The notes beneath the pieces are model-generated. The model made no database searches. It was given only the letters and a program-made list of their open reading frames with translations, and was not told where the DNA came from. Of a stretch of DNA of 32,000 nucleotides, positions 17,898 through 24,211 are shown piece by piece. Source of the DNA: Parcubacteria group bacterium GW2011_GWB1_45_10. Its GTDB lineage: Bacteria; Patescibacteriota; Minisyncoccia; UBA6257; Brennerbacteraceae. A program made the position numbers and the translations under genes. Location of the stretch: the NCBI GenBank assembly GCA_001001185.1, contig LCKC01000003.1, positions 1 to 32,000 of the forward strand, written 5' to 3'. Every line of letters starts with the position of its first letter. Within the stretch, counting starts at the first letter, position 1.

Positions 17898-19607
17898 ATG
17901 AAAATCCTCATGGTTTACCTGCGGCCGTCGCCGGTTTCGCCGCAGAAGAATTCCGCGCTCTCCGTGATTTATCCGGGGAGGGCGGCGGAGGAAGCCGGGC
18001 ACGATGTGGATTACTGGGATGCGCGCTTGGACAGCGAGAAGAAGTTGTGGTTTCTCACCGAGTGGGCCGACGTCGTGGCGATAAGCTCGCTCTCCGGTTT
18101 TCAGCTTGGAGAGTCAATTCGTTTCGCCCGCCGGGTAAGGGAATTGTATCCCAATAAACCCCTTGTTTGGGGCGGGGTGCATCCGACGTTCCAGCCCGTT
18201 CAGTCGCTCCGGGAACCCTTCGTTGACTTCTGCGTTATCGGTGAAGGCGAGAAGCGGTTTCCACGCCTCCTCGAAGTAATTGAGGGGGGTCGCGGGTTTC
18301 GATGTATTGATGGCTTGGGCTACAAAAGGACAAGCATCGGGTACGAACCGAGTCCGGAAGAAGAAGAGGTTTTCACGGACCCGGAGGCGCACCCCGGCGG
18401 TCTCGTGCTCCGGCCGATTCCCGGCCGCGAAGGCATGGACCGAATCGAGCTTCACGACGCGATGGGCGTTTTCGGCGACATTGCCGTGAACCCCCGCGGT
18501 CCGCTTCTTGACTTTGCGACCGAGTACGTTTCGGCGGTTTCGGAGAGAACGCTTCGTCTTTTCCGGGCGGCGGCGAAACGCAACGAGGTCATCTTCCAGG
18601 CCTCCCGCGGGTGTAACTGGACGCCGACCTCCTGCGAATTCTGTTCGGTCGGCGGCCAGTACACGGAGCAAGTGCCGGATCCGCGGACGGGCGAAGTAAA
18701 AACCCGGTCGCGGTACCGGTTCATTCCGTTCGAGCTTTGGTCGAAGGATTTAGGTGAGATCTACGACGCCGAACCTTTCGACTTCGTTGAGCTCGAAGAC
18801 GAGAATTCTTCGCATTTCGTGAGGGATTGGCGGTACGCCGAGTTCTTGCGAGAGCGGGGAGTGAAGTATCACCTTCACCTGCGGTCAGATCAGCTTCAAG
18901 ATGAGGAGGTTGTTTCCAAGCTCGCCGCGACGGGCTGTATCCGGATCCACATCGGCGCCGAGTCCGGGAACGAAGAGACACTTCGGACGATGCGGAAGAA
19001 CGAATCCGTCGCGGATCACTACAAGGCCGCGCGGGTGCTCGCCGAGTACGGTATCGAAGGAGTTTACACCTGGATTATCGGCAACCCCGGCGAGAAACCT
19101 CCCGAGATAATGGATACGCTTCGCGTCTCGGACGAGGTTCGGGCGCTCCATCCGCTAGGCAAGAGCCGGGCGACCATCTATGTGCTCATGCCGCTCCCGG
19201 GCACCATCGCTTTCAACCGGGCGGAGAAAGAGGGCTGGCCGTTGCCGACGACGATGGAGGGGTGGACGGATATGTCGGCGGCCTACAATCCGACCCTGCC
19301 CAAGTGGATGAACAACATCTACTTCATCGCCGGCTTTCATCACAATCGTCACCACAAAACGCCGCAGAATTTCCCCGGTTGGTGGCGGCTCCTCATTCTG
19401 CCTTTCGAGGTCGTGATGGAGTGGCGGTGGCGTCAGGGGATCAGAACGGCGAATATCGCCTACTTCAGCTGGTTTGACCTGGAATACTGGTGCATCGCCA
19501 AGCTCTTGTCTTGGCGAAGCCAGCGTTCCGTCGGACAGACGTCTCAAGGGCGTAGTCAGGTGCCCAAGCTTTTGGAACGGCTGATGCCGGGCCTGGCCGG
19601 GCACTAG
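17898..19607 (+). CDS. B12-binding-domain radical SAM enzyme (class B-like)
   Basis: 569 aa. N-terminal Rossmann-like B12-type domain (VVAISSLSG, WGGVHPTF, CVIGEGE), then SRGCNWTPTSCEFCSV and a TIM-barrel-type core (IRIHIGAESGN). SD GGGGAGAG. High GC. Confidence 0.75.
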   Translation: MKILMVYLRPSPVSPQKNSALSVIYPGRAAEEAGHDVDYWDARLDSEKKLWFLTEWADVVAISSLSGFQLGESIRFARRVRELYPNKPLVWGGVHPTFQPVQSLREPFVDFCVIGEGEKRFPRLLEVIEGGRGFRCIDGLGYKRTSIGYEPSPEEEEVFTDPEAHPGGLVLRPIPGREGMDRIELHDAMGVFGDIAVNPRGPLLDFATEYVSAVSERTLRLFRAAAKRNEVIFQASRGCNWTPTSCEFCSVGGQYTEQVPDPRTGEVKTRSRYRFIPFELWSKDLGEIYDAEPFDFVELEDENSSHFVRDWRYAEFLRERGVKYHLHLRSDQLQDEEVVSKLAATGCIRIHIGAESGNEETLRTMRKNESVADHYKAARVLAEYGIEGVYTWIIGNPGEKPPEIMDTLRVSDEVRALHPLGKSRATIYVLMPLPGTIAFNRAEKEGWPLPTTMEGWTDMSAAYNPTLPKWMNNIYFIAGFHHNRHHKTPQNFPGWWRLLILPFEVVMEWRWRQGIRTANIAYFSWFDLEYWCIAKLLSWRSQRSVGQTSQGRSQVPKLLERLMPGLAGH

Positions 19608-19620
19608 CAAGTAGCAAGAG

Positions 19621-19669
19621 ACAGCACTCTCGTGAGAGGGTGCTGTTTTGCTTTATTTGTAAAGCAAAA
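19621..19669 (+). terminator. Tandem intrinsic terminator hairpins after the radical SAM gene
   Basis: Hairpin 1: ACAGCACTCTC-GTGA-GAGGGTGCTGT (19621-19646, 11 bp including 1 G-U) followed by a T-run. Hairpin 2: TTTTGCTTTA-TTTG-TAAAGCAAAA (19646-19669, perfect 10 bp). Confidence 0.7.
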
Positions 19670-19748
19670 ATTACTCTAAAATATCTGATCTTCCAAATCT
19701 TTGAAATTGATGCTAAATTATAAATAATAACTGAATACGCCTAACCCT

Positions 19749-19754
19749 TATAGT
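19749..19754 (+). promoter_or_regulatory. -10-like box TATAGT, 6 nt upstream of the uORF ATG at 19761
   Basis: TATAGT TTTTCT ATG, preceded by an A/T-rich tract. The -35 is weak. The spacing matches the other leaderless-type promoters in the window. Confidence 0.3.
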
Positions 19755-19760
19755 TTTTCT

Positions 19761-19820
19761 ATGAGATATGGCAACAAAACCCACTACAGGACAGACAGCT
19801 CGTCATCAGAGCACCTGTAG
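19761..19820 (+). CDS. Candidate 19-codon leader peptide (MRYGNKTHYRTDSSSSEHL)
   Basis: ATG at 19761 to TAG at 19818-19820. It reads through the 5' repeat copy and stops inside the inverted copy, and contains four consecutive Ser codons. Purely predicted. Confidence 0.3.
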   Translation: MRYGNKTHYRTDSSSSEHL

Positions 19821-19924
19821 TGGGTCATATCCCGAAAGGGGTATGGGTAGTCGAAAGATTATCGCTGGTGGCGGGCTTTGTGTTTATCTGCCGCCAGAAG
19901 CATAAATAAAAACCCACTACAGGC
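19776..19924 (+). promoter_or_regulatory. Structured cis-regulatory leader RNA (unclassified riboswitch or attenuator-like) upstream of the methyltransferase block
   Basis: 15-nt perfect direct repeat (19776-19790 and 19909-19923) plus its 12-nt exact inverted copy (19814-19825). Three contiguous hairpins follow, two with GAAA loops. G-U pairs occur only on the + strand. Confidence 0.6.
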
Positions 19925-20656
19925 ATGCTTAAGAAGATACTAAAAACTGTATTAAGTGCTATATATAGATTACTTTTAAGACCATCTATAAGGTATGTTT
20001 TTCCAATAACCGTTGATAGATATCCTTTATTGGGATATGGAGACAGGGAAAAGATATTTTTCTATGCAATGGAGTTTGCAGCAGGCGGGGAAAAACTTGG
20101 CGGCGATTACTTAGAATTTGGTGTTGGTAACGGCGGCAGTTTTATTATTGCTTTTCATTTTGCGAAAAAACTCGAGAAGTTGAATTCAATGAAATTTTAC
20201 GCCTTTGATTCTTTTCGGGGGCTGCCAGAGCCTAAAGAAATTGATTTAGAAGAAAAGATTTTTAAAAAAGGAGAATATATGTGTTCAGAAGACGAGTTTT
20301 TAGAAAATATAAGAAAAAACGGGGTTGATTTAAATAGGGTAATTACTGTCCCCGGCTGGTATAAGGAGGTTCTAAATAAAGAAACTAAAGATAAACTTCA
20401 AATTCAGCGAGCAGCAGTTGTTTTTATCGACTGCGATCTTTACGAATCGGCTAATCTTGTTTTAAATTTTATAACTGATTATCTTGTGGATGGCTCTGTT
20501 CTTATATTTGATGATTGGTTTTGTTTTCGAGGGAATTCTAACAAGGGCGAACAAAAAGCTTTTGGAGAGTGGCTTAGAAAAAATCCAGAGATAAAGGTGT
20601 CAGAATTCTATAAATTTAGCTGGCATGGTAATTCATTTATTATTCATAAGGACTAG
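19925..20656 (+). CDS. TylF/MycF-family (macrocin-O-methyltransferase-like) SAM-dependent sugar O-methyltransferase
   Basis: 243 aa with YLEFGVGNGGS, FDSFRGLPEP and FIDCDLYESA, hallmarks of the TylF family. Low GC. Confidence 0.75.
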   Translation: MLKKILKTVLSAIYRLLLRPSIRYVFPITVDRYPLLGYGDREKIFFYAMEFAAGGEKLGGDYLEFGVGNGGSFIIAFHFAKKLEKLNSMKFYAFDSFRGLPEPKEIDLEEKIFKKGEYMCSEDEFLENIRKNGVDLNRVITVPGWYKEVLNKETKDKLQIQRAAVVFIDCDLYESANLVLNFITDYLVDGSVLIFDDWFCFRGNSNKGEQKAFGEWLRKNPEIKVSEFYKFSWHGNSFIIHKD

Positions 20657-20726
20657 GTCTTAAAGATATTTTATATAACTTTTTACTCCTCTTTATTTTT
20701 TGTTGTTGTGCTATTATTGTGATTAA

Positions 20727-21758
20727 ATGACGCGATGCAATATTTGTGGTAACGAAAATACCAAAAAAATGTATAGTGATCACGTCGGTTACATAGAAAA
20801 TGATGTTTACGATATTTACGGATGTGATAGTTGTGATGCTCAATTTGTTTCACCGTTGAAAGTCGATCCAAAATTATATGATATTATCTATTCGGATAGG
20901 ACTAATGAGATAGGACCTGCAGGATACGGTCAGCACTTAATTCAAGCTAAAAAAATTTCAAATCACGATAAGCCATTAGAGTTTTTAATAGAGACAGACA
21001 TCAATTATTCAGTTGTCGGGGATTATCTTAAAGACAAGAAAAATCTGGATATTCTGGAAGTGGGCGCTGGTTATGGATATTTAACTTACGCTCTGAAAAA
21101 ATTAAATCATAATTCATTCGGTATCGATATTTCTCGCGTGACGATTGATTATGCGCTCCAAACTTTTGGACCAAATTACAAATGCGCAGATTTAGAATCT
21201 TTTATCGGAAGCATAGGCAATAACCGGAAATTTGATCTTATCATAGCTATAGAGCTGGTTGAGCATCTTTCTAACCCAGAAAAGTTCATTAAAAATTGTT
21301 TTTCAATCCTTAAACCGAACGGTAGAGTGTTAATTACCACCCCTAATAAAGGTTATTATCGAAAAGGTAGTATTTGGATTTCTGATTTGCCGCCCGTTCA
21401 TCTGTTTTGGTTGAGCCCAAAAACCTTTAACTATATTGCGGAAGAAAATGGTTTAAACTTGAAATATTTCGACCTAGCTTCTCATATATTAAAACATGAC
21501 AAAATTAACCTTCTCATCAACTATTTGCGCAGTAGAGAAAAGATCAGAATAAGGCCGCATGTTTTTAAAGCATCTGGAGAACTCAATTTAGAAAATCATA
21601 ATTCTTTAAACCAACCGTCGTTGTTGAAGAAGCTTGTGCGCTTTATACTTGTTGATATAGCTCCAATAAGAATATTGTCTAATTTTCTTTATCGTAAAAT
21701 TATAAATCCAAAATTTCCAAATACCTCAACGCAAGCTTTATTATTATGGAGAGGATAA
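20727..21758 (+). CDS. Class I SAM-dependent methyltransferase with an N-terminal CxxC...CxxC zinc-ribbon
   Basis: CNICGN...CDSCDA at the N-terminus, motif I ILEVGAGYG, then LIIAIELVEHL and LKPNGRVLITTPN. Confidence 0.75.
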   Translation: MTRCNICGNENTKKMYSDHVGYIENDVYDIYGCDSCDAQFVSPLKVDPKLYDIIYSDRTNEIGPAGYGQHLIQAKKISNHDKPLEFLIETDINYSVVGDYLKDKKNLDILEVGAGYGYLTYALKKLNHNSFGIDISRVTIDYALQTFGPNYKCADLESFIGSIGNNRKFDLIIAIELVEHLSNPEKFIKNCFSILKPNGRVLITTPNKGYYRKGSIWISDLPPVHLFWLSPKTFNYIAEENGLNLKYFDLASHILKHDKINLLINYLRSREKIRIRPHVFKASGELNLENHNSLNQPSLLKKLVRFILVDIAPIRILSNFLYRKIINPKFPNTSTQALLLWRG

Positions 21759-21761
21759 ATT

Positions 21762-22430
21762 ATGTTGGAATTTTTAAGAAAGCATAAAAAGCTCGTATAC
21801 TTATTCCTCCCCACACTCCGGATTTCCAGTGTGGGCTGGATTAGTACCATGATTGAACTTCGTAGGCAGTTTAATAAATTAAAGCCCGGCATCGTGTTAG
21901 ATATCGGCGGCGGAGACGCGCCCTACAAAAAATTTGTACCACACACAAAGTACATGACCTTAGATGTTGACAAATCTAGTAATCCCGATATTTTATCTGA
22001 CGCCCATAATATTCAATGGCAATCAAATTATTTTGATACCATTATTTCAATTGAAACACTGGAACATCTTCGCGAACCGCAAAAATCCATTAATGAAATT
22101 TATAGGTTACTGAAGCCGGGAGGGGTCTGTGTGCTCTCTACGAGGTTTTTACATCCTTATCATCCGGGACCAGAGGATCATTATAGATTTACGTGGGATT
22201 CTTTAAGACATCTTTTTAGAAAATTTGATAATATTGAAATTTATCATGTTGGAAACAGATTACAATTATTCCATCAGTTTATAAACTTTGTAGATAGTGA
22301 GAATTTTTTAAAACAATTTATTACGACAGGAATGGCAATTTTTTTGAACATATTAAATCCTATTTTTGCAAGAATTCGCTTTAAAAAGACTAAATTCCCC
22401 TTAGGTTTTGTAGTATATGCAAGAAAATAA
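21762..22430 (+). CDS. Class I SAM-dependent methyltransferase (Methyltransf_11-like)
   Basis: VLDIGGGDAPY motif I, then IISIETLEHL and LKPGGVCVLS. Confidence 0.75.
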   Translation: MLEFLRKHKKLVYLFLPTLRISSVGWISTMIELRRQFNKLKPGIVLDIGGGDAPYKKFVPHTKYMTLDVDKSSNPDILSDAHNIQWQSNYFDTIISIETLEHLREPQKSINEIYRLLKPGGVCVLSTRFLHPYHPGPEDHYRFTWDSLRHLFRKFDNIEIYHVGNRLQLFHQFINFVDSENFLKQFITTGMAIFLNILNPIFARIRFKKTKFPLGFVVYARK

Positions 22431-23364
22431 ATACAAAAATTCTAAAGCAACTATTATTGTAAATACTTATAACCGTTCTAAAATTTTAGCCGAACGTTCT
22501 TTGCCGAGTGCTCTAAATCAAACTTATAAGAATTTTGATGTTATTATTGTTGACGATTGTTCAAAAGACGACACTGAAGAAATAGTTAAAGAATTTCAAA
22601 AGAAATATTCCGACCTTAGATATATAAAACAAAAAGGAAATAAAGGATTAGCTGCTTCAAGGAATACCGGCGCAAGAAAAGCAAGAGGAGAGTATGTTGT
22701 TTGTTTGGACGATGATGACGCTCTAGACCAAAAATTTTTAGAAATTACCGTTCCAGTTTTAGATAGATTACCAAAAGACTTTGGTGGCGTTGGTTGTGGT
22801 AGAAAAATCATTTATCCGGAGGCTGAAATTTATTCTCCGCCAGCGCATGCAAATCAACTTTACATTTCAATAGACGACGGCTTCCTTTTAAGGAAAAGCA
22901 TATTTTCCAAAATTAATTATGACGAGAATTTAAGATGGAGCGAAGATGCTGATTTCGGTATTCAGTTTTTCAAAAATTTTAAAATACACATGATAGATAA
23001 ACCATTATTACTGAAATACGGTCATAAAATAGAGGCATCTAAGAAAACCGATTATTTCTCTTTCAGCTTTCCTTCAGAACAAGTTCTTGTTGATATGCAA
23101 AAGTATATTGATAAAAACTTGCCATTTTTTTATGAACGGCGAGACAAAAAAGAAATTGCTTATATTTATCGTATGGCCGGGAGAAATTATTGTTGGGGTG
23201 GGCATATGTTTAAAGGAATTTCTTTTTTATGGCGAGCGTGCGTTACAAGACCAGTCCCCAGAAATATTTTGAATCTTTTGATGGCTCTCTGCGGTCCTTT
23301 TATTTATCGCTATTATTTAGCATTTGAAACAAGGATGATACGTCTTATACGTTCTCGGCTTTAA
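22417..23364 (+). CDS. Family 2 glycosyltransferase
   Basis: ATIIVNTYNRSK...IIVDDCSKDDT...CLDDDDA (DxD). 14-nt overlap with the upstream gene. Confidence 0.85.
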   Translation: MQENKYKNSKATIIVNTYNRSKILAERSLPSALNQTYKNFDVIIVDDCSKDDTEEIVKEFQKKYSDLRYIKQKGNKGLAASRNTGARKARGEYVVCLDDDDALDQKFLEITVPVLDRLPKDFGGVGCGRKIIYPEAEIYSPPAHANQLYISIDDGFLLRKSIFSKINYDENLRWSEDADFGIQFFKNFKIHMIDKPLLLKYGHKIEASKKTDYFSFSFPSEQVLVDMQKYIDKNLPFFYERRDKKEIAYIYRMAGRNYCWGGHMFKGISFLWRACVTRPVPRNILNLLMALCGPFIYRYYLAFETRMIRLIRSRL

Positions 23365-23374
23365 TACTTAGATA

Positions 23375-24211
23375 ATGATTAGCTACATTTTTTCGAACTT
23401 AGGAATGATTTGGTTTTTGCTTCAGCGCGCCAAGAATTGGAAAGCGCGGATTACCTTCGCCTCCTATATCGCAAGGAACATCCTGCGCCGGCTCATTAAA
23501 AGCGTTCCGTTGCCGGCCGAGATTTTTGCGGAAACAAAAGATTTAGATTTTTATTTTTCGCCTGGCAAAAGCGAACTCTCTCCCTACGTGGAGATTTACC
23601 GCGACCGCGGCTATGAAAAAGACGGGCGGTTTATTGCGAAGCCCGGCGAGACGGTTATAGATGTCGGCGCCCACATCGGCTTTTACGCCATCTGCGAGGC
23701 GAAACGAGTTGGAGAAAAAGGGAAAGTTTTTGTCATTGAACCGAACCCCGATACTTTCGGACGGCTTTTAAAAAACATAAAAGCCAATGATTTAGAGAAC
23801 GTTGTTCCTTTGAATAACGCCGCCACTTCGCGGAAAGGAAGGGTTTTACTCCGGGTTTCCGTAAGTTCGAGCGAAGCCAATACGATTATGGCCTCCGGCA
23901 CAACAGACGATTACGGAGAGGAAATTAAAATCCAAGCCATCGGTCTTGATGAAATTGTTAAAAAATATAACCTTTCTAAGATTGATATTTTGAAAATTGA
24001 CGCCGAAGGCGCGGAAGCGGAAGTGGTTGAGAGCGGTCTCAAAAAGGCCTTGCCGATAACGGAGAAAATCGTGACGGAAACCCACTCTGAAAACCTGAAA
24101 AACGAAGTTAAAAAACTTGTTTTGGGGAACGGCTTTGAACTTGTTGCCGAAGCGTTCTCCGGCGTGAACGCTTTAGGGAGAAATACGATGCTCTATTTCG
24201 TCAGAATTTAA
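23375..24211 (+). CDS. FkbM-family methyltransferase
   Basis: VIDVGAHIGFYA, VFVIEPNPDTF and ILKIDAEGAE, the typical FkbM pattern. Confidence 0.8.
   Translation: MISYIFSNLGMIWFLLQRAKNWKARITFASYIARNILRRLIKSVPLPAEIFAETKDLDFYFSPGKSELSPYVEIYRDRGYEKDGRFIAKPGETVIDVGAHIGFYAICEAKRVGEKGKVFVIEPNPDTFGRLLKNIKANDLENVVPLNNAATSRKGRVLLRVSVSSSEANTIMASGTTDDYGEEIKIQAIGLDEIVKKYNLSKIDILKIDAEGAEAEVVESGLKKALPITEKIVTETHSENLKNEVKKLVLGNGFELVAEAFSGVNALGRNTMLYFVRI

Follow-up and report, generated by a model that had tools for sequence, protein, structure and literature searches.

A LOOT RNA with a covarying pseudoknot and a start-codon decoy strand, a candidate riboswitch-like leader of a methyltransferase operon in a Parcubacteria bacterium

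The window, a stretch of 32,000 nucleotides from contig LCKC01000003.1 of Parcubacteria group bacterium GW2011_GWB1_45_10, contains a gene for a B12-radical-SAM protein (17898-19607) that is ended by a terminator-like hairpin, which sets the 5' limit of the transcription unit described here. The genes of this unit were confirmed as a TylF-like methyltransferase, two class I methyltransferases, a GT2 glycosyltransferase and a FkbM-type methyltransferase. Between the hairpin and the first gene lies a LOOT RNA, situated at a GC boundary in the window. The features on the forward strand are as follows, with PK for the strands of a pseudoknot and antiPK for the competitor of its 3' strand.

19618-19649, + strand: terminator-like hairpin and T-run, with a 14-pair stem, a 4-nt loop and a T-rich tail
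19701-19728, + strand: candidate promoter region, TTGAAA-16 nt-AATAAT (19701-19728) and an extended -10 TGcTAAATT (19711-19719)
19739-19772, + strand: P1, outer 3 bp (19739-41/19770-72) and inner 7 bp (19747-53/19759-65)
within 19739-19772, + strand: P1 internal loop, CCUAAC / UAUGG, sharing 10 of 11 positions with the 11-nt GAAA-tetraloop receptor
19779-19790, + strand: P2 5' strand, ACCCACUACAGG, with the preceding AAA the first 15-nt repeat copy (19776-19790)
19797-19809, + strand: PK5', AGCUCGUCAUCAG, in the P2 terminal loop, pairs with 19865-19877 and overlaps the short distal GCUC/GAGC hairpin of Rfam
19814-19825, + strand: P2 3' strand, CCUGUAGUGGGU, shared, pairs with 19779-19790 or with 19912-19923
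19826-19845, + strand: P3 hairpin, 8 bp, GAAA loop
19846-19863, + strand: P4 hairpin, 7 bp, GAAA loop
19865-19877, + strand: PK3', CUGGUGGCGGGCU, pseudoknot 3' strand, 3' of the part covered by the Rfam model
19878-19887, + strand: conserved U-rich tract, UUGUGUUUAU, loop of the third hairpin, family consensus GCTTTnTGTTT
19888-19897, + strand: antiPK, CUGCCGCCAG, pairs with 19865-19874
19898-19911, + strand: A-rich linker, AAGCAUAAAUAAAA
19912-19923, + strand: decoy copy of the P2 5' strand, pairs with 19814-19825 (helix P2') and ends 1 nt before the ATG
19925-20656, + strand: TylF-like O-methyltransferase, first gene of a low-GC five-gene tailoring block (to 24211)

The direct repeat of 15 nt, AAAACCCACTACAGG, was present at 19776-19790 and 19909-19923 with zero mismatches, and its 12-nt reverse complement CCTGTAGTGGGT at 19814-19825, as had been described. 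With up to two mismatches allowed, the 15-mer had three matches in the window against 0.02 expected, a number reached by none of 100 dinucleotide shuffles. The three hairpins following the middle strand were recovered as well (19826-19845, 8 bp, GAAA; 19846-19863, 7 bp, GAAA; 19865-19897, 10 bp, 13-nt loop), then an A-rich linker of 14 nt and the end of the second helix at 19923, one nucleotide before the ATG at 19925, the first possible start codon of its frame. The third hairpin exists as described, but is not independent, since the pseudoknot uses its 5' arm as 3' strand. Two parts of the same RNA had been missed: the upstream hairpin at 19739-19772 and the pseudoknot, formed by the 23-nt loop between the first two repeat strands and the 5' arm of the third hairpin. 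On the + strand every non-Watson-Crick pair is a G-U pair; that the segment is a sense-strand RNA structure within a 5' leader, as had been proposed, is supported. The minimum-energy fold of 19730-19945 is the one in which the middle strand pairs with the downstream copy (-77.9 kcal/mol, z = -5.7, none of 200 shuffles being as stable). The segment was also found on groundwater metagenome contigs.

The original prediction regarded the leader as unclassified and named a match to a known Rfam family as refutation. Positions 19738-19863 are a full-length LOOT RNA (Rfam RF03000), scoring 84.4 bits against a gathering score of 46.4 (E = 1e-16) and covering model positions 1-121 of 121, thus this claim falls. 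As in the model, the region presents P1 with an asymmetric internal loop, an A-rich (AAAA) linker, a long P2 and two adjacent GNRA-capped hairpins. Related loci were recognised by the model in 20 of 20 cases with 67-96 bits. A permissive cmscan of 19600-20000 (E up to 1) yielded, besides LOOT, three sub-threshold chance matches only; no SAM, SAH, preQ1, c-di-GMP, ZTP, fluoride or other riboswitch family matched. The LOOT motif originates from Weinberg et al. 2017 (PMC5737381), via the ZWD alignments (PMC7779021), and is not mentioned in the main text of the former. Its structure was summarised as 'about 43 base pairs in six helices, 28 cross-covariations' (PMC7657543), and two pairs were added in Rfam 15. 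A published function was not found in the literature searched. For comparison we used 143 distinct LOOT loci, mostly from genomes of Patescibacteria/CPR and from metagenomes; the named hosts were mostly Patescibacteria MAGs. To our knowledge, LOOT had been known only from marine metagenomes without a classified host. Viral contigs searched with the pattern GGGTN5CCCGAAAGGGN5GG gave 14 loci, none of them LOOT, and no sign of a phage origin. One contig (L006), considered as a natural variant of the middle strand, was internally inconsistent and probably an assembly chimera.

Rfam lists LOOT under the type 'Gene; sRNA'. The RNA in the window is probably not stand-alone, as a co-oriented ATG follows 61 nt behind it with no canonical terminator in between, a placement shared by 137 of 143 relatives; its membership in the family stands since the type is a catalogue label and not a structural criterion. 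From either candidate promoter the RNA would start about 4-13 nt before LOOT. Hexamers of the -10-like form TANNWT were enriched 24-29 nt upstream of LOOT among 142 loci, and the TAAATT of the window is located at -25 to -20. A co-oriented ORF of at least 60 amino acids starting with ATG was present within 260 nt of the pseudoknot 3' strand in 137 of 143 loci, at a median distance of 46 nt (interquartile range 34-58). That other transcription units of the window are leaderless, as had been proposed, is plausible: most of its genes are without a Shine-Dalgarno sequence, and in several a TATAAT-like box lies 7-10 nt ahead of the start codon.

Covariation of P1, P2, P3 and P2' was determined in an alignment of the 37 leaders that carry a copy of the P2 5' strand. 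The inner helix of P1 was paired to 93.7 % with compensatory changes in 6 of 6 pairs, P2 to 88.0 % with both partners changed in 9 of 12 pairs, and P3 to 98.3 % with all 8 pairs compensatory. The distal P2 hairpin of the Rfam model (GCUC/GAGC) was paired to 52 %, within a loop region misaligned by MAFFT. The 11-nt receptor for GAAA tetraloops has the consensus CCUAAG...UAUGG. In the LOOT loci, receptor positions 6 and 7 covary, with A.C in 81 and C.U in 45 loci. The likely partner of the P1 receptor is the GAAA loop of P3, a loop occurring in 131 of 137 loci, although the search pattern itself had required GAAA. The conserved nucleotides of LOOT are mostly structural, comprising the receptor, the tetraloops and CCC/GGG, and thus little of an obvious binding pocket is left.

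In 137 loci the 11 pairs of the pseudoknot core were paired to 96.1 %, and all 11 were changed on both sides. Slid controls were paired to 37-58 %, and no shuffle equalled the observed value. The pseudoknot of the window itself bears a compensatory change from G-C to A-U. By pairing of the U-rich tract with the A/G-rich 5' part of the P2 loop, the pseudoknot is lengthened to 17-19 bp in several relatives. A pairing of the U-rich tract with the 5' leader before P1 gave no signal (mean duplex energy -3.15 vs -2.97 for shuffled or permuted partners). The first 10 nt of PK3' double as 5' arm of the third hairpin; antiPK takes up 19865-19874 and hence competes with the pseudoknot. The antiPK helix was paired to 76.5 % with 5 of 10 pairs compensatory, in a ragged alignment. 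Its duplex was better than all 30 shuffles in 67 % of the loci with a copy and in 37 % of the others.

A sense copy of the locus's own P2 5' strand, at least 9 nt long and 60-115 nt behind P2, was found in 37 of 143 loci (26 %). As in the window, where the second pairing adjoins the start codon, the copies of the relatives end 0-7 nt before an ATG; in one locus (L030) the ATG is inside the copy. Helices of at least 10 bp with the P2 3' strand were formed downstream in 31 loci against 3 in an upstream control of equal size. Nine distinct P2 core sequences occurred, each with its matching copy. The alternative helix P2' covaries as well as P2 itself: it was paired to 90.1 %, compared to 33-46 % in slid controls for P2 and P2', and in 9 of its 12 pairs both bases had changed. 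The comparison with 143 loci thus bears out the mutually exclusive partners of the middle strand, which the original prediction had drawn from this single locus, as a conserved, covarying architecture. An unbiased longest-common-substring scan of the tails identified the P2 5' strand alone as recurrently duplicated; other LOOT strands, e.g. a P4-like AAAGGUCG motif, did not recur. The AAAA prefix of the decoy copy is conserved (alignment A3). Judged by these alignments, the downstream repeat is a conserved, covarying decoy strand that would be able to lock up the start-codon region. In the window, five further pairs of the fold with P2' span the UG of the AUG (-5.1 kcal/mol). Across the family this extension had -0.99 against -1.02 in shuffled sequences and was significant in 1 of 37 leaders; the pairing of the AUG is specific to the window and not general.

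These data bear on two explanations without control of the adjacent gene. A repeat acting at the DNA level, as target-site duplication of a MITE-like element, as recombination site or as substrate of slippage deletion in phase variation, would account for a perfect 15-bp direct repeat with copies 133 bp apart and would suit an RNA that precedes many accessory or mobile genes and lies at a GC boundary here. The repeats, however, do not flank an element, because the 5' copy is internal to LOOT, behind P1. The complementary strand between the repeats cannot be explained by target duplication. In each of nine P2 variants all three strands have stayed complementary or identical to one another; G-U pairing is confined to one strand, no deletion variant was present among 7 independent metagenome contigs, and near-identical copies are absent, the copies diverging with compensatory changes. 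We regard this explanation as hardly credible, and its form as MITE or target duplication, raised earlier, as excluded by the internal 5' repeat, the lack of terminal inverted repeats and the separate repeat of each relative. Very improbable is also a trans-acting small RNA as catalogued, for which operon position and repeat would have no cis function. The Rfam type and the majority of loci without a copy speak for it, but every copy fits the P2 of the locus it belongs to even though P2 varies between loci, only 0-7 nt separate it from the adjacent gene's ATG, and LOOT is almost always co-oriented with an ORF 34-58 nt away. We regard LOOT as probably a switch of gene control rather than a separate small RNA.

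Between LOOT and the ATG of the window no canonical terminator of hairpin and U-run was detected; the hairpin 19865-19897 is followed by A's. The pseudoknot helix alone precedes a U-rich tract, and a scan flagged a weak terminator-like site at 19862-19874. True terminators were found in 10 of the 106 other LOOT leaders, with antiPK overlapping the terminator arm, and these ten loci imply a polarity opposite to that of the start-codon decoy. Transcription attenuation could consequently be considered the main mode, in which the pseudoknot helix with UUGUGUUUAU terminates, a LOOT sRNA of about 140 nt is released and the decoys matter only in read-through RNA. The position of the U-rich tract directly 3' of PK3' in nearly all loci, the Rfam sRNA type, the flagged site and the ten genuine terminators coupled to antiPK are in line with it. 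Against this stand the missing canonical terminator in the window, the use of the U-tract for the pseudoknot extension in several loci and the tightly distributed short distance to an ORF in 137 of 143 loci. Moreover, no ON state would exist if the pseudoknot terminated transcription and the decoy helix blocked translation. As the principal mode, attenuation of transcription is unlikely.

We estimate a probability of about 0.65 that this segment serves the methyltransferase operon as 5' leader and consists of a LOOT sensor domain and a riboswitch-like translational expression platform. This reading draws directly on the family membership, the pseudoknot, both competing pairings with their covariation and the leader position. 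As in riboswitches, a conserved structured domain is located in the 5' leader of a downstream gene, and P2/P2' as well as pseudoknot/antiPK are mutually exclusive and overlap the start site or a terminator. Two folds are proposed. In fold A, LOOT would adopt its native structure of P1 with the GAAA-receptor-like loop, P2, the GNRA hairpins P3 and P4 and the pseudoknot of the P2 loop with 13 nt behind P4; the A-rich region and the AUG would be single-stranded, and translation would be possible. In fold B, the two downstream decoys would act, the copy at 19912-19923 on the P2 3' strand and antiPK at 19888-19897 on PK3'. The 12-bp helix then ending 1 nt before the AUG should block binding of the 30S subunit in an organism mostly without Shine-Dalgarno sequences. 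Fold A would be maintained, and the operon switched ON, by anything that stabilises the tertiary fold of LOOT, which might be a protein, an ion or a small ligand.

The competing duplexes of the window are balanced, with -21.6 kcal/mol for both P2 and P2', -20.1 for the pseudoknot and -19.0 for antiPK. The nested folds of the leader had -63.9 and -65.6, pseudoknot and tertiary terms being outside the model. The predicted fold turns to B only after 19912-19923 has been transcribed. In the nested energy model fold B was reached in 18 of 37 copy-type leaders. Among the leaders without a copy, the start region was unpaired in the minimum-energy fold in 73 of about 100, hence LOOT must also do something else. 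A late switch between nearly isoenergetic states would equally be expected of a kinetic or constitutive attenuator without ligand: LOOT folds first and gives the ribosome a brief window, then fold B shuts down translation, either with no signal or with only general conditions, i.e. temperature or Mg2+, acting on the tetraloop-receptor fold. The lack of a pathway common to the downstream genes and the mostly structural role of the conserved positions fit this explanation. A simple delay, however, would need no fold of about 140 nt with a receptor and two GNRA loops, a pseudoknot of 11-13 bp kept across many CPR lineages would be superfluous, and the same domain is coupled to terminators with an antiterminator logic that is typical of sensors. 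Such an attenuator appears rather improbable.

For a sensor, the genes behind LOOT are unusual. The 134 ORFs belonged to 66 Pfam families, none with more than 7 members, and most ORFs had no match. The commonest were DUF4352 (7), zinc-ribbon (7), SNase (5) and DNA methylase (3). Nucleases, methyltransferases for DNA and sugars and small membrane proteins have no common pathway; many genes preceded by LOOT are accessory or horizontally mobile. Several kinds of methyltransferase recur, yet they are a minority. SAM, SAH or a nucleotide sugar as ligand finds no support in the genes that accompany the family overall. The 134 ORFs do not point to one metabolite or signal, and with this heterogeneity LOOT differs from most metabolite riboswitches. 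We therefore put forward only tentatively, and with the balance slightly against it, that LOOT represents the sensor domain of a riboswitch class not recognised before and a global regulator in CPR bacteria of surface, nuclease, restriction-modification and glycan-tailoring genes, with a pseudoknotted aptamer and at least two platforms, a start-codon decoy (ON) and an antiPK/terminator (OFF). As ligand, an ion, a second messenger or some cue from the host might be considered.

LOOT has been in Rfam since 2017-2020 as a metagenomic "sRNA" without described function. New are its position as a 5' leader element, the unmodelled pseudoknot and the modular expression platforms, which make LOOT a concrete, testable riboswitch candidate. 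Likewise new are its named hosts, mostly Patescibacteria/CPR, ultrasmall and largely uncultured organisms with almost unknown gene regulation, and LOOT would give CPR genetics a native control element. The candidate regulon of secreted nucleases, DNA methylases, small envelope proteins and glycan tailoring bears on the dealings of episymbionts with hosts and phages. In annotation, about 15 nt should be added to the Rfam model, and the type assigned to the family should be changed.

Compared to the catalogued family, whose model stops after P4, the window and 137 relatives continue into the covarying pseudoknot strand, and the RNA catalogued as sRNA sits here in a 5' leader, with a start-codon platform in a quarter of the cases. 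The properties of the GAAA tetraloop/11-nt receptor module have been described (PMC2275092). The P1 loop of the window (CCUAAC / UAUGG) and the GAAA loops on P3 and P4 resemble this module, but position 6 in LOOT is C or A instead of the canonical G and covaries with U or C at position 7; docking is putative. H-type pseudoknot riboswitches are known for preQ1, SAM-II and fluoride. As in these, a hairpin loop of LOOT pairs 3' of its hairpin and competes with a helix of the expression platform; the LOOT pseudoknot, however, spans two intervening hairpins within a much larger fold and has no Rfam similarity to them. Riboswitches for second messengers such as c-di-GMP-I (GEMM-I) have a GNRA tetraloop-receptor fold and are found ahead of a wide range of genes, which often encode surface or secreted proteins. 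LOOT likewise stands before diverse genes and has ON as well as OFF platforms. The resemblance is confined to behaviour; LOOT consists of four hairpins and a pseudoknot and gave no cmscan match to any of these families even at E = 1. The add adenine riboswitch of Vibrio vulnificus is a translational ON switch with a strand-exchange platform. There, as proposed for LOOT, the 3' strand of an aptamer helix alternates with a downstream segment at the initiation region, and the folded aptamer frees the start. The sensor of LOOT is unrelated to it in sequence and fold, and, in contrast to add, its decoy is an exact copy of an aptamer strand, works without a Shine-Dalgarno sequence and would be switched in parallel with a second helix, the pseudoknot against antiPK.

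The only Rfam match in the window was the LOOT RNA (RF03000) on the + strand at 19738-19863; it covers the whole model and scores 84.4 bits, the gathering score being 46.4. The leader of the TylF-like methyltransferase, described as unclassified in the original prediction, is therefore an ordinary LOOT member. LOOT consists of an upstream hairpin (P1), an AAAA linker, the hairpin P2 between the first repeat copy and its complement, which is fold (a) of the original prediction, and two GAAA hairpins (P3 and P4). P1 was absent from the original prediction; the third hairpin and the second repeat copy lie outside the Rfam model. The repeat, complement, hairpins and start codon were all present in the sequence where the prediction had placed them:

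19776-19790 and 19909-19923, + strand: direct repeat of the 15-mer AAAACCCACTACAGG (sequence inspection)
19814-19825, + strand: 12-nt complement of the 15-mer (sequence inspection)
19826-19845, + strand: hairpin with GAAA loop
19846-19863, + strand: hairpin with GAAA loop
19865-19897, + strand: third hairpin, 3' of both GAAA hairpins

The second long helix (P2'), formed by the downstream copy and the P2 3' strand, ends one base 5' of the ATG at 19925. Three matches to the 15-mer were found in the window, 0.02 being expected by chance. The 216-nt leader region had a folding z of -5.7 relative to shuffles, and its minimum-energy structure was the predicted fold containing P2' (fold B). A 45-codon ATG ORF wholly within LOOT (19768-19905), annotated as a gene in a single metagenome contig (locus L006), is almost certainly spurious. 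The P1 5' strand (19746-19760) is 80% complementary to 19979-19993, about 55-70 nt into the coding region, which is near chance level for such a length in a 400-nt region.

Contigs from groundwater metagenomes carried the window's methyltransferase behind identical leaders, thus close relatives were uninformative. A degenerate LOOT pattern retrieved 59 loci from species-representative genomes, 56 of them genuine and hosted overwhelmingly by Patescibacteria/CPR MAGs, and at least 120 further loci from metagenomes. All 20 loci re-tested against Rfam scored 67-96 bits. After duplicate removal, 143 loci from the species-representative genomes and the metagenome matches listed were analysed. Genuine LOOT was present on contigs titled Gammaproteobacteria (L028, L029, L034, L036, L039, L048, L060), Bathyarchaeia (L041), Latescibacter (L067), Simkania (L061) and Anaerolineales (L065); either the binning or the labels are wrong, or LOOT extends beyond Patescibacteria. 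In L006 (1-45 of a 1.4-kb contig), the downstream leader and gene were the same, the P2 loop and P2 3' strand differed, and both were incompatible with its own 5' end. For L006, a chimeric assembly at the conserved GGGUCAUAUCCCGAAAGG core is the most likely explanation, and assemblies may break where LOOT copies are repeated.

Of the 143 loci, 137 had a co-oriented ATG ORF (60 aa or longer) beginning within 260 nt, at a median distance of 46 nt from the end of the structure (interquartile range 34-58). In the 60 nt upstream of 142 loci, -10-like hexamers were enriched 24-29 nt before LOOT (GCCUAA). In the window TGcTAAATT takes this place, another promoter-like site lies at 19701-19728, and the upstream gene is closed by its own terminator (19618-19649). 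LOOT, an sRNA by its Rfam entry type, is a leader element and not a free sRNA. Between the hexamers and P1, an ACAAYUGAAU-like stretch recurred in the 142 loci (19711-19737 in the window), possibly as start-site context or as an extra RNA element. The radical-SAM gene's terminator is directly followed by a second hairpin, a perfect one of 10 bp (19646-19669, TTTTGCTTTA / TAAAGCAAAA), which may belong to a bidirectional terminator or to an AT-rich spacer.

A sense copy of the locus's own P2 5' strand was found in the tail of 37 of the 143 loci (26%), with an AAAA prefix, 60-115 nt after P2 and stopping 0-7 nt short of the start codon; one locus had its ATG inside the copy. Helices of at least 10 bp with the P2 3' strand were formed downstream in 31 loci versus 3 in an equal-sized upstream control. 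At least nine P2 sequence versions had each a matching copy, and recurrent duplication of other LOOT strands was not found in the leader tails. The two mutually exclusive pairings of the original prediction withstood the covariation check: P2' was 90.1% and P2 88.0% paired, with both-side changes in 9 of 12 pairs in each. Judged from these comparisons, the repeat is a conserved putative decoy and chance is excluded. The P2 versions are discrete (GCUAGAG, ACUACAGG, AUCCCUG, AUCGAAGA and others), without base-by-base drift in the leader alignments A3 and A5, and may lie behind the 28 'cross-covariations' that CaCoFold reported for LOOT. A mobile insertion (MITE) flanked by target-site duplications, raised as an alternative reading of the repeat, was excluded because the 5' copy is internal to LOOT and the sequence between the copies holds their complement.

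The terminal loop of P2 (19797-19809, AGCUCGUCAUCAG) can pair with the 13 nt following P4 (19865-19877, CUGGUGGCGGGCU), giving a pseudoknot that reaches about 15 nt past the point where the Rfam model stops on the 3' side. When 137 loci were aligned with MAFFT by sequence only, its 11 core pairs were 96.1% paired, all 11 with both-side changes; slid partners gave 37-58%, and no shuffle reached the observed values. The window has A-U where most relatives have G-C, and some loci (L025, L109) extend to 19 contiguous pairs including a U-rich tract. The third hairpin and the pseudoknot use the same 5' arm and are therefore competitors. The 3' arm of this hairpin (antiPK, 19888-19897) was 76.5% paired in a ragged alignment, its duplex exceeding all shuffles in 67% of copy-type and 37% of other leaders; these results clearly support the predicted antiPK, at a level below the pseudoknot.

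Our conclusion is that this leader works as a switch between two states; this part of the original interpretation is upheld. In the window, P2 and P2' have equal duplex energies (-21.6 kcal/mol each), the pseudoknot -20.1 versus -19.0 kcal/mol for the antiPK hairpin, and the two global folds are within 2 kcal/mol of each other in their nested parts. The predicted fold shifts from LOOT to fold B only after the copy is transcribed. The P1 internal loop (19740-19745 / 19767-19771, CCUAAC/UAUGG) is a near-perfect 11-nt GAAA receptor. The classical motif has G.U at positions 6/7; here 81 loci had A.C and 45 had C.U, so that the two positions co-vary without Watson-Crick pairing (alignment A5). Since the two GAAA loops face this receptor, the native fold should be held by tertiary contacts that depend on P2 and not on P2'. 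Folded LOOT would leave the start region free; without stabilization the decoys would invade and the 12-bp helix would abut the AUG. Both this polarity and the presence of a ligand are inferred. Most genes of the window miss a Shine-Dalgarno sequence and several appear leaderless, thus an unstructured start region should matter. TATAAT-like boxes 7-10 nt before the starts 4700(-), 7728(-), 16555(-) and 16585(+) suggest many leaderless or very-short-leader mRNAs in the source organism. The extension of fold B across the AUG is specific to the window.

Three quarters of the LOOT leaders miss the copy. Ten of these (L041, L047, L061, L113, L133, L139 and four others) have a classical terminator (hairpin plus U-run) with a 5' arm that overlaps antiPK. 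Such leaders would act as antiterminator/terminator attenuators with the folded pseudoknot as OFF state, opposite in polarity to the start-codon decoy type. For the remaining copy-less leaders an open start region was predicted.

The 134 ORFs behind LOOT shared no pathway and most had no Pfam match; DUF4352, zinc-ribbon, SNase, DNA methylases, bPH and Pmp3 were the commonest families. SAM or a nucleotide sugar, named in the original prediction among the ligands to probe, gains no special support as signal. The genes of the window form a surface-polysaccharide locus (Wzy-like, CapD-like, DegT, GT2/GT4, UDP-glucose dehydrogenase, flippase). LOOT lies exactly at the 5' boundary of the low-GC five-gene methyltransferase/GT2 tailoring block (19925-24211; 32-35% GC, 41% in the last kilobase, versus about 48% elsewhere in the window). 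Many LOOT-led genes elsewhere are accessory too, e.g., restriction-modification methylases and nucleases.

LOOT has been listed as a metagenome-derived family (PMC7779021), was given a structure of six helices with about 43 pairs (PMC7657543), and is among the tabulated R-scape refinements (PMC11701678). In the literature searched, we found neither a functional study of LOOT nor its description as a CPR leader that contains a pseudoknot and has modular expression platforms, and the family is worth experimental follow-up.
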